Source: a virus
DNA: 64,000 nucleotides
Reading direction: 5' to 3' (one strand)
IMG/VR virus record: IMGVR_UViG_3300043446_003158
Location: 64,001-128,000 of that record
This document shows positions 22,931 through 24,429 of the stretch, piece by piece. The position numbers and the translations under genes are program-made. A model generated the notes under the pieces. The model worked only from the letters and a program-made list of their open reading frames with translations, was not told where the DNA came from and ran no database searches. Position 1 is the stretch's first letter. Each line of letters begins with the position of its first letter.

Positions 22931-22990
22931 TTTATTTTAACATTCTCTTTGGGATCATGTCAAGTGGGGGGAAAACCGTACTTTTAAAAG

Positions 22991-23062
22991 AGCGGGGTAT
23001 CGGAATCGAACCGACGACATCTAACTTGGAAGGATAGCGTTCTACCGCTGAACTAACCCCGC
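22991..23062 (-). tRNA. tRNA-Gly(UCC)
   Basis: Cloverleaf; anticodon loop CT-TCC-AA; U73. Confidence 0.92.
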
Positions 23063-23109: not shown

Positions 23110-23138
23110 ATTATATAGTAATTTTTAAATTATGTCAA
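23110..23138 (-). promoter_or_regulatory. Sigma70-type promoter TTGACA-17-TATAAT driving tRNA-Gly
   Basis: The -35 box lies in the last codons of the upstream oxygenase gene. Confidence 0.75.
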
Positions 23139-23699
23139 GTCGTTTGCAACTACAGAAAAATTTAAAATACATCTTGGATTTTTTTTAGGAATTCCTGCAG
23201 CATGATATAAAGATCCATCAAAAACAACGACTCTACCTTTTTTTGGACATACTTCTTGCAATATTTTTGGTTTATAATCTTTTGGTTTAATTAAACATTT
23301 ATTTTTTTCAAATTTTTCTTTAGAAATAATAGTATTTCCATCAGAATTATTTACATAATACAAATAAACTAAATGTGGTTCATCAATATCAACATGAAAT
23401 AAGTCATTATATTTAGAAGAACGTGATGGTATCTGTAAAAAACTTCTACCATGTATTGCGGAAATATTAATTTTTATTTTATTAGAAATTTGATTAACTA
23501 AAGAAATTACATGCTCATATGCTGGACTCTTATTTTTTTTATCCAAAGTAATCAAAGAATGAGAAAATCCTACTCCAGAAAATTCCCCACCACCAACTAT
23601 ATCAGAAGTAAAAAACCAAGGAAAATTTGTTCCTAAAAAATAGGTTTCTAATTTATCTTGGTAATCTTTTGGTATAACGTTATCTATTATTCTGATCAT
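23130..23699 (-). CDS. 2OG-Fe(II) oxygenase superfamily protein
   Basis: FHVD (HxD), YLYYVNNSDGNT, FDGSLYHAA, R near the C-terminus. Confidence 0.78.
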   Translation of the reverse strand: MIRIIDNVIPKDYQDKLETYFLGTNFPWFFTSDIVGGGEFSGVGFSHSLITLDKKNKSPAYEHVISLVNQISNKIKINISAIHGRSFLQIPSRSSKYNDLFHVDIDEPHLVYLYYVNNSDGNTIISKEKFEKNKCLIKPKDYKPKILQEVCPKKGRVVVFDGSLYHAAGIPKKNPRCILNFSVVANDLT

Positions 23700-23715: not shown

Positions 23716-23787
23716 AGCCCCCGACTGGATTTGAACCAGCGACCAACGGTTTACAAAACCGTTGCTCTACCACTGAGCTACAGAGGC
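23716..23787 (-). tRNA. tRNA-Thr(UGU)
   Basis: Cloverleaf; anticodon loop TT-TGT-AA. Confidence 0.92.
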
Positions 23788-23791
23788 GAAA

Positions 23792-23892
23792 GGTGATGAG
23801 TGCCCATCACCCGCAGAAGACACTTTCTGCAAGTTTCACTGCATTAGAGGGCAGTGAAAATATGATAGAATCGAACATTTCCAACCCTATCA
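23792..23892 (-). ncRNA. Candidate ncRNA: four hairpins with a kissing-loop pair, between tRNA-Asn and tRNA-Thr
   Basis: Stems TGATAGG/TCTATCA, TTTCACTGC/GCAGTGAAA, GCAGAA/TTCTGC and GGTGATG/CATCACC; loops AGTGTC and GGCACT are complementary. Confidence 0.55.
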
Positions 23893-23893
23893 A

Positions 23894-23966
23894 CTCCCCC
23901 ACCTGGACTCGAACCAGGAACCCCAGAGTTAACAGCTCCGTGCTCTGCCAATTGAGCTATAAGGGA
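23894..23966 (-). tRNA. tRNA-Asn(GUU)
   Basis: Cloverleaf; anticodon loop CT-GTT-AA; G73. Confidence 0.92.
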
Positions 23967-23970
23967 ATAA

Positions 23971-24053
23971 TGGTAGGAGGGATTTCTATGTGCCGACAGA
24001 ATCACCTTTCACATCATCCAGTCTAAACCAGCGAGAGGTGTTGCACTTCCTAC
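23971..24053 (-). ncRNA. Candidate structured RNA of tRNA size in the tRNA operon
   Basis: Terminal stem GTAGGA/TCCTAC enclosing CACCT/AGGTG and TCTGT/ATAGA stems; no anticodon arm. Confidence 0.4.
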
Positions 24054-24141
24054 ATTTGATGGAGTAAGTGTGATATACCTCATAAGGATATAACAGGGAC
24101 TTACCCTCTATCACTTTTATATATGGAGAATAATTCTCCAA

Positions 24142-24313: not shown

Positions 24314-24400
24314 ATAGGGACCTCTCTGTTTGTGCATTGTTAAGAGGCATGAGAGGGGCGGGTCTTATGCGAGGGTTGGAACCCCGCTGCCCATAAGAGT

Positions 24401-24429
24401 ATTATAAGGGATGGTAGTAAGGTTGTCAA
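24401..24429 (-). promoter_or_regulatory. Sigma70-type promoter TTGACA-17-TATAAT driving the Ile-Arg-Asn-Thr tRNA operon
   Basis: Perfect consensus read directly. Confidence 0.85.

Follow-up and report, generated by a model that had tools for sequence, protein, structure and literature searches.

What is encoded in the spacer that separates tRNA-Asn from tRNA-Thr in the tRNA operon of a T4-like cyanomyovirus? The spacer, referred to herein as the element, is 105 nt long and occupies positions 23788-23892 on the minus strand of the window, a stretch of 64,000 nt (positions 64,001 to 128,000) within the 177-kb IMG/VR record IMGVR_UViG_3300043446_003158. Among isolates, S-SRM01, a freshwater Synechococcus phage, is the closest; its DNA is about 80% identical across nrdA, nrdB and the primase gene. 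Phage tRNA clusters are increasingly regarded as anti-defence loci. To our knowledge, no function has emerged for their non-tRNA RNAs in the fifty years since T4 RNAC and RNAD. The first-pass annotation described the element as four hairpins in a row with a loop-loop pseudoknot between the last two.

Organization of the tRNA operon

On the minus strand, the operon runs in the order abiF motif, tRNA-Ile, tRNA-Arg, a 173-nt structured spacer, tRNA-Asn, the 105-nt element and tRNA-Thr. The coordinates are collected in Table 1. CCA is not encoded in either of the two tRNA genes that flank the element. No plausible small ORF was found in the spacer, and the proteins encoded nearby gave no RNA-related clue.

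Table 1 Features of the element and its operon, in order of transcription (window coordinates).
Feature	Position	Strand	Evidence or remark
Promoter at the head of the operon, sigma-70-type consensus TTGACA-17-TATAAT	24401-24429	(-)	12/12 matches
abiF RNA motif (RF03085)	24320-24356	(-)	Rfam, 49.9 bits (gathering score, 37)
tRNA-Asn (GTT), upstream boundary	23893-23967	(-)	ARAGORN; Rfam tRNA, 60.5 bits
H1, apex GGAAAUGU	23863-23892	(-)	Predicted fold; begins 1-2 nt past tRNA-Asn
H2, 8-9 bp, conserved 8-nt loop CCUCUAAU	23834-23859	(-)	Fold and covariation
H3, 6 bp, near-invariant loop AGUGUC (23819-23824)	23813-23830	(-)	First half of the constant core
H4, 8 bp, loop GGCACU (23799-23804)	23791-23812	(-)	Second half of the constant core
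UUC tail of 3 nt, adjoining the tRNA-Thr 5' end (predicted RNase P cut)	23788-23790	(-)	
tRNA-Thr (TGT), downstream boundary	23716-23787	(-)	ARAGORN; Rfam tRNA

The abiF RNA (RF03085; AbiFr; RCd22) is a protein-binding antitoxin of the AbiF HEPN RNases (10.1101/2025.04.15.648962; PMC12737573), and an abiF match was reported in the genome of cyanophage S-CREM1 (PMC9964418). The covariance model comprises 37 positions with an outer stem, a 3-bp inner stem, an 11-nt loop and a 6-nt bulge. In the window, the motif ends 5 nt ahead of tRNA-Ile at the head of the operon, and no AbiF toxin gene is located nearby. The same placement, 5-6 nt before a tRNA, was also observed in loci L001, L046, L048, L064 and L083. 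The motif before tRNA-Ile is probably a decoy by which the phage imitates the AbiF antitoxin RNA.

Further structured parts were observed in the same array. The Arg-Asn spacer (23968-24140, minus strand) holds two more conserved modules. The 5' module is common to S-SRM01 (L001:1208-1290), and the second is a closed-stem RNA, GUAGGA...UCCUAC-CA, that ends 4 nt ahead of tRNA-Asn. A perfect second promoter, TTGACA-17-TATAAT, is found at 23110-23138 (minus strand) ahead of tRNA-Gly (22990-23062), and an ORF of 189 aa without a Pfam match (23130-23699) splits the tRNA array. The second promoter and the intervening ORF indicate that the array is divided into separately promoted units.

Folding and conservation of the element

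The four successive hairpins on the minus strand are present as first described. The spacer folds with a minimum free energy of -43.6 kcal/mol, compared with -23.2 +/- 3.4 kcal/mol for shuffled sequences (z = -6.1), and 0 of 200 shuffles were as stable. H4 is indeed a hairpin; its pairing had been drawn too short and is better described by 8 pairs, GGGUGAUG/CAUCACCU. H4 adjoins H3 through a linker of 0-1 nt in 75/75 distinct cores. A T-loop-like GTTCGA had also been read in H1. This sequence is paired in the consensus fold and appears as GTCCGA or GTCTGG in most relatives, and thus it is not a conserved T-loop. H1 is terminator-like by a scan of the window. H4 was also considered as a terminator and was rejected, since the scan does not flag it.

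When the spacer was compared with 50,697 phage records by BLAST, it was matched only in S-SRM01. H2-H4 of this phage are about 94% identical with unchanged loops, compared with about 80% for nrdA, nrdB and primase DNA, and the two hairpins of the core each carry a compensatory change (GCAGAA/TTCTGC to GCAGGA/TCCTGC in H3, GGTGATG/CATCACC to GGTGACG/CGTCACC in H4). Pattern scans of IMG/VR and metagenomes then extended the set of conserved relatives to 156 loci on viral and metagenomic contigs, with 75 distinct H3-H4 cores. These relatives were collected with patterns that lie inside the element, and the loop statistics for H3-H4 rest mainly on the scans anchored in H2. The mean identity of the core was 92% versus 71% for the flanking tRNAs, a contrast that is inflated by the element-internal search patterns.

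Compensatory changes were identified in every stem: 5/11 pairs in H1 (alignment A5, 42 sequences), 5/9 in H2, and, among the 75 distinct cores, 3/6 in H3 and 6/8 in H4. In the stems, 98.7% of alignment cells were paired, versus 33-50% when the partners were slid. G-U pairs are frequent in the stems and reach 39/75 at one H4 pair, which assigns the structure to the tRNA strand and points to RNA rather than duplex DNA. The loops are retained even where the stems are exchanged. L066, L089 and L067 have an entirely different H3 stem but retain the loop AGUGUC, and the H2 stem of L046 is CGCCGT/ACGGCG with its loop unchanged. The covariation in 4/4 stems and the homologues in S-SRM01 and metagenomes verify that the element is a conserved, strand-specific structured RNA, as the first-pass annotation had proposed.

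A constant core with exchangeable modules

The relatives do not share one fixed four-hairpin molecule; H1 and H2 are separable modules around the H3-H4 core. The element is a mosaic in which H3-H4 is constant, H2 is usual but replaceable, and H1 is common but dispensable. H3 and H4 were never found apart among the loci. H1 is absent where H2 abuts tRNA-Asn (L044, L049, L054, L096, L121 and L151). About a dozen loci, including L006, L007, L031-33, L040 and L050-52, carry unrelated hairpins in place of H2, and L021 lacks H2. Other modules of up to about 150 nt can sit between H1 and H2. A covariance model of H3-H4 detected one copy per locus and one in the whole genome.

An inverted H2 was observed in L091 (1467-1544, minus strand), where the same stem carries the loop AUUAGAGG directly after tRNA-Asn and H3-H4 is intact. 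This inversion has the appearance of a flip in which the hairpin recombined across its own inverted repeat.

The position beside the tRNAs is also well defined. tRNA-Asn is the upstream neighbour in 66 of the 83 distinct contexts, and H1 or H2 starts 1-2 nt past it in most loci. The 3' end of the element usually lies 3-5 nt ahead of a tRNA or of an acceptor-like stem with a terminal CA, and H3 starts 43-45 nt ahead of a tRNA in 57/83 distinct contexts. The downstream tRNA in the relatives is Thr, Val, Leu, Met or Ala. Most of the remaining contexts have a closed-stem RNA, GUAGGUG...CACCUAC-CA, at the same spacing, which resembles the module in the Arg-Asn spacer of the window. In L067 and L095, the element is present with no tRNA downstream.

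Other structured RNAs were detected around these operons. Permuted cyanobacterial-type tmRNAs (RF01851) were found in L085 (1366-1640, plus strand; 99.9 bits) and L038 (367-622, minus strand; 79.4 bits), in the same tRNA operon and a few genes past the element; none was found in the window. Group I intron matches of about 64.7 bits lie near tRNA operons in L083 (3595-3789, minus strand) and L009 (4978-5172, minus strand), and wcaG RNA motifs were detected in L041, L004 and L063.

Family membership

The search against Rfam 15, including the small self-cleaving ribozymes, assigned the spacer to no family; the best scores were 8-17 bits with E-values of at least 1. The first-pass annotation could not match it to a known family, and this was upheld even when the search was narrowed to 121 nt. 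It is also not a tRNA, as had been stated, with no tRNA or tmRNA call by ARAGORN and no tRNA-clan match in Rfam in 23788-23892. Two exact-pattern scans of 185,579 cellular genomes did not find the element. Its sequence was not found in the papers searched, and the IMG/VR structured-RNA catalogue (PMC10690425) might list it. The element is an undescribed RNA family. It constitutes a non-tRNA structured RNA gene within a tRNA operon, on the same strand as the tRNAs and abutting them, and is a candidate for a stable RNA of the T4 RNAC/RNAD kind.

Two possible mimicries of H2 were considered separately. The sequence TTCACTGCC of the H2 region is presumably common to type I-F CRISPR repeats. H2 as a mimic of such a repeat and H2 as a mimic of an anticodon arm (CUA) were both dropped, as neither the stem nor the loop has a fitting size.

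Do the H3 and H4 loops pair?

The complementarity of the two loops was verified. AGUGUC (23824-23819) and GGCACU (23804-23799) pair in antiparallel orientation with 5 Watson-Crick pairs and 1 G-U pair. The chance of such complementarity is 0.4-1% for the H3 and H4 loops, and about 22% for at least 6 contiguous pairs between any two of the four loops. The H3 and H4 loops hardly vary, their hairpins always occur together, and the G-U pair in the commonest form fits pairing in RNA. At the single variable pair, UG, UA and CG are all seen. These features speak for a kissing-loop RNA, in which loops 3 and 4 would pair within one molecule or as dimers and chains.

The changes within the loops give it no clear support. 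Across the 75 distinct cores, 0/6 of the proposed loop-loop pairs were altered on both sides. Seven one-sided changes are compatible with pairing (UG to UA in 5, UG to CG in 1, GC to GU in 1), and six break the pair (UG to UU in 4, UA to CA in 2), so that 6 of the 13 variants lose a pair. Loops that vary so little offer covariation analysis little to act on, and an external partner would explain this near-invariance equally well. Where loops never vary, their complementarity alone is no evidence of pairing, and this corrects the kissing-loop reading. Overall, a kissing-loop RNA of either form is considered unlikely.

The geometry bears on the form that such pairing could take. In solved kissing complexes of six pairs, the loop-loop helix has a stem stacked on either end, and the bases of the stems are about 20 pairs apart. 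A linker of 0-1 nt cannot span this distance, which by geometric reasoning renders an intramolecular six-pair kiss sterically implausible. The intramolecular pseudoknot proposed in the first-pass annotation is therefore not sustained by the 0/6 compensatory changes, the 7 versus 6 one-sided changes and the short linker. If the H3 and H4 loops pair at all, pairing between molecules is more likely than pairing within one. It is conceivable, and in our judgement quite improbable, that H3-H4 self-associates after release, with loop 3 of each molecule bound to loop 4 of its neighbour so that dimers or chains form. If true, such chains might serve as a scaffold or sponge during infection and would add a new class of RNA assembly in phages beyond that of the phi29 packaging motor.

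Discussion

A proposed small RNA excised from the tRNA operon

The following route is proposed for the element. The early sigma-70-type promoter would drive a polycistronic tRNA precursor that contains the element. In cyanobacterial tRNA maturation, RNase Z cuts after the discriminator and RNase P cuts at the tRNA 5' end. A cut by RNase Z, or by another 3'-processing enzyme, after tRNA-Asn and a cut by RNase P before tRNA-Thr would set free a separate RNA, about 100 nt in length, that carries a 5' phosphate and ends in a 3' hydroxyl. The location of the spacer directly between the two tRNAs fits the release by tRNA processing that had been suggested earlier.

In the excised RNA, the stems would only hold the shape, and the loops CCUCUAAU, AGUGUC and GGCACU would be the working surfaces for a protein or RNA partner. 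The conservation pattern, with fixed loops on drifting stems, points to this division of roles. The released RNA would most likely act in trans, as is presumed for T4 RNAC and RNAD. As a decoy or sponge, it may occupy a host factor, which could be an anti-phage one; the sole basis of this guess is the toxin-less abiF antitoxin motif with the same pre-tRNA placement in the same operon. The presence of this motif, a protein-binding antitoxin RNA, suggests that these operons are a source of small decoy RNAs. The sequence comparisons give no indication that the element imitates a known host RNA, since the two exact-pattern scans revealed no relative or mimic in the cellular genomes. Taken together, we regard it as an evenly balanced proposition that the element is a small RNA cut from the tRNA operon, probably trans-acting through its invariant loops and maybe serving as a decoy or sponge.

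Alternative explanations

The element might instead serve only the tRNA precursor as a cis-acting punctuation or stability element and then be degraded. Its hairpins might set the order of the RNase P and RNase Z cleavages or assist them, or they might act as a barrier to exonucleases and RNase E. The steady 3-5 nt between H4 and the RNase P-type site, the start of H1 1-2 nt past tRNA-Asn and the terminator-like nature of H1 in the window are compatible with this role, and no trans target was found. The constant spacing to the RNase P site fits the trans and cis readings equally well. However, the element occupies just one of at least 8 tRNA junctions per operon, and a mere structural block would not need near-invariant loops on drifting stems. 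The single copy, the fixed loops, the persistence in L067 and L095 without a following tRNA, and the free variation of the downstream tRNA identity favour a trans-acting gene over a processing signal. The cis-acting role alone is considered unlikely.

The abiF motif at the head of the operon raises the possibility that the element is itself an antitoxin RNA of the abiF type, diverged or rearranged, which neutralises an AbiF-like HEPN RNase of the host. The apex of H2, UGC-CCUCUAAU-GCA, resembles the abiF apex UGC-CUCUUAACAAU-GCA. However, the Rfam abiF model gave no match on the spacer (121 nt searched, E up to 10), the local alignment was not significant (p = 0.08), and H2 is a replaceable module outside the constant core. 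Kinship to abiF was rejected on the covariance-model and alignment results, and an antitoxin of this type is very improbable. A new self-cleaving ribozyme would agree with the fixed place beside a cleavage site and with the highly conserved unpaired bases. A DNA element, such as an operator AGTGTC-N14-GGCACT, an origin or a homing site, would agree with the inverted repeat that the two loops form in DNA. Known ribozyme families were not matched, and RNase P makes the tRNA 5' ends anyway. The stems show covariation of the RNA type, and their many G-U pairs would be A-C mismatches on the opposite strand, which argues against a DNA element. A ribozyme or DNA element is considered extremely improbable.

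Significance

The element carries invariant loops and is conserved above the neighbouring tRNAs, a difference inflated by the search patterns. With S-SRM01 and Synechococcus sp. KCZYC6, it is available in a phage and host that can be cultured, and its operon also contains a toxin-less AbiF antitoxin motif. The culturable phage-host pair and the operon shared with the abiF motif make the role of such RNAs directly testable.

Comparison with known systems

Among known kissing complexes, phi29 pRNA, HIV TAR-TAR* and ColE1 RNAI/RNAII are nearest to the element. Like the element, phi29 pRNA has two mutually complementary loops within one RNA, and its geometry forces the loops to pair between molecules. 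In contrast to phi29 pRNA, the element has no link to DNA packaging, oligomers are not indicated, and covariation does not support the pairing. The abiF motif also forms a small hairpin whose loop is conserved, and it lies in the same operon a few nt before a tRNA, but it has no counterpart of the constant H3-H4 core.

The T4 RNAs RNAC (species 1) and RNAD (species 2), from the genes rnaC and rnaD, are cut from the tRNA transcript and have no assigned function (PMC3014915, PMC9697503). A side observation concerns rnaD (L167:1554-1672, minus strand), which contains a hairpin UGAUG-CCCUCUUA-CAUCA followed by GCAGAAA. The loop CCCUCUUA recalls the H2 loop CCUCUAAU, and GCAGAAA recalls the start of H3; the likeness may be due to chance. 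The abiF and other models gave no match to this hairpin.

The element shares no sequence or structural homology with RNAC and RNAD, and homology to rnaC and rnaD was rejected by the comparison at both levels. T4 rnaC has a tRNA-like T arm, whereas the element has none, and the element, unlike the two T4 RNAs, is a mosaic of swappable hairpins. The likeness lies in the setting. RNAC and RNAD are likewise non-tRNA structured RNAs in the tRNA cluster of a T4-like phage that abut a tRNA, and rnaD begins 1 nt past tRNA-Arg. By this analogy, the element resembles T4 RNAC and RNAD both in the kind of gene and in where it is located.
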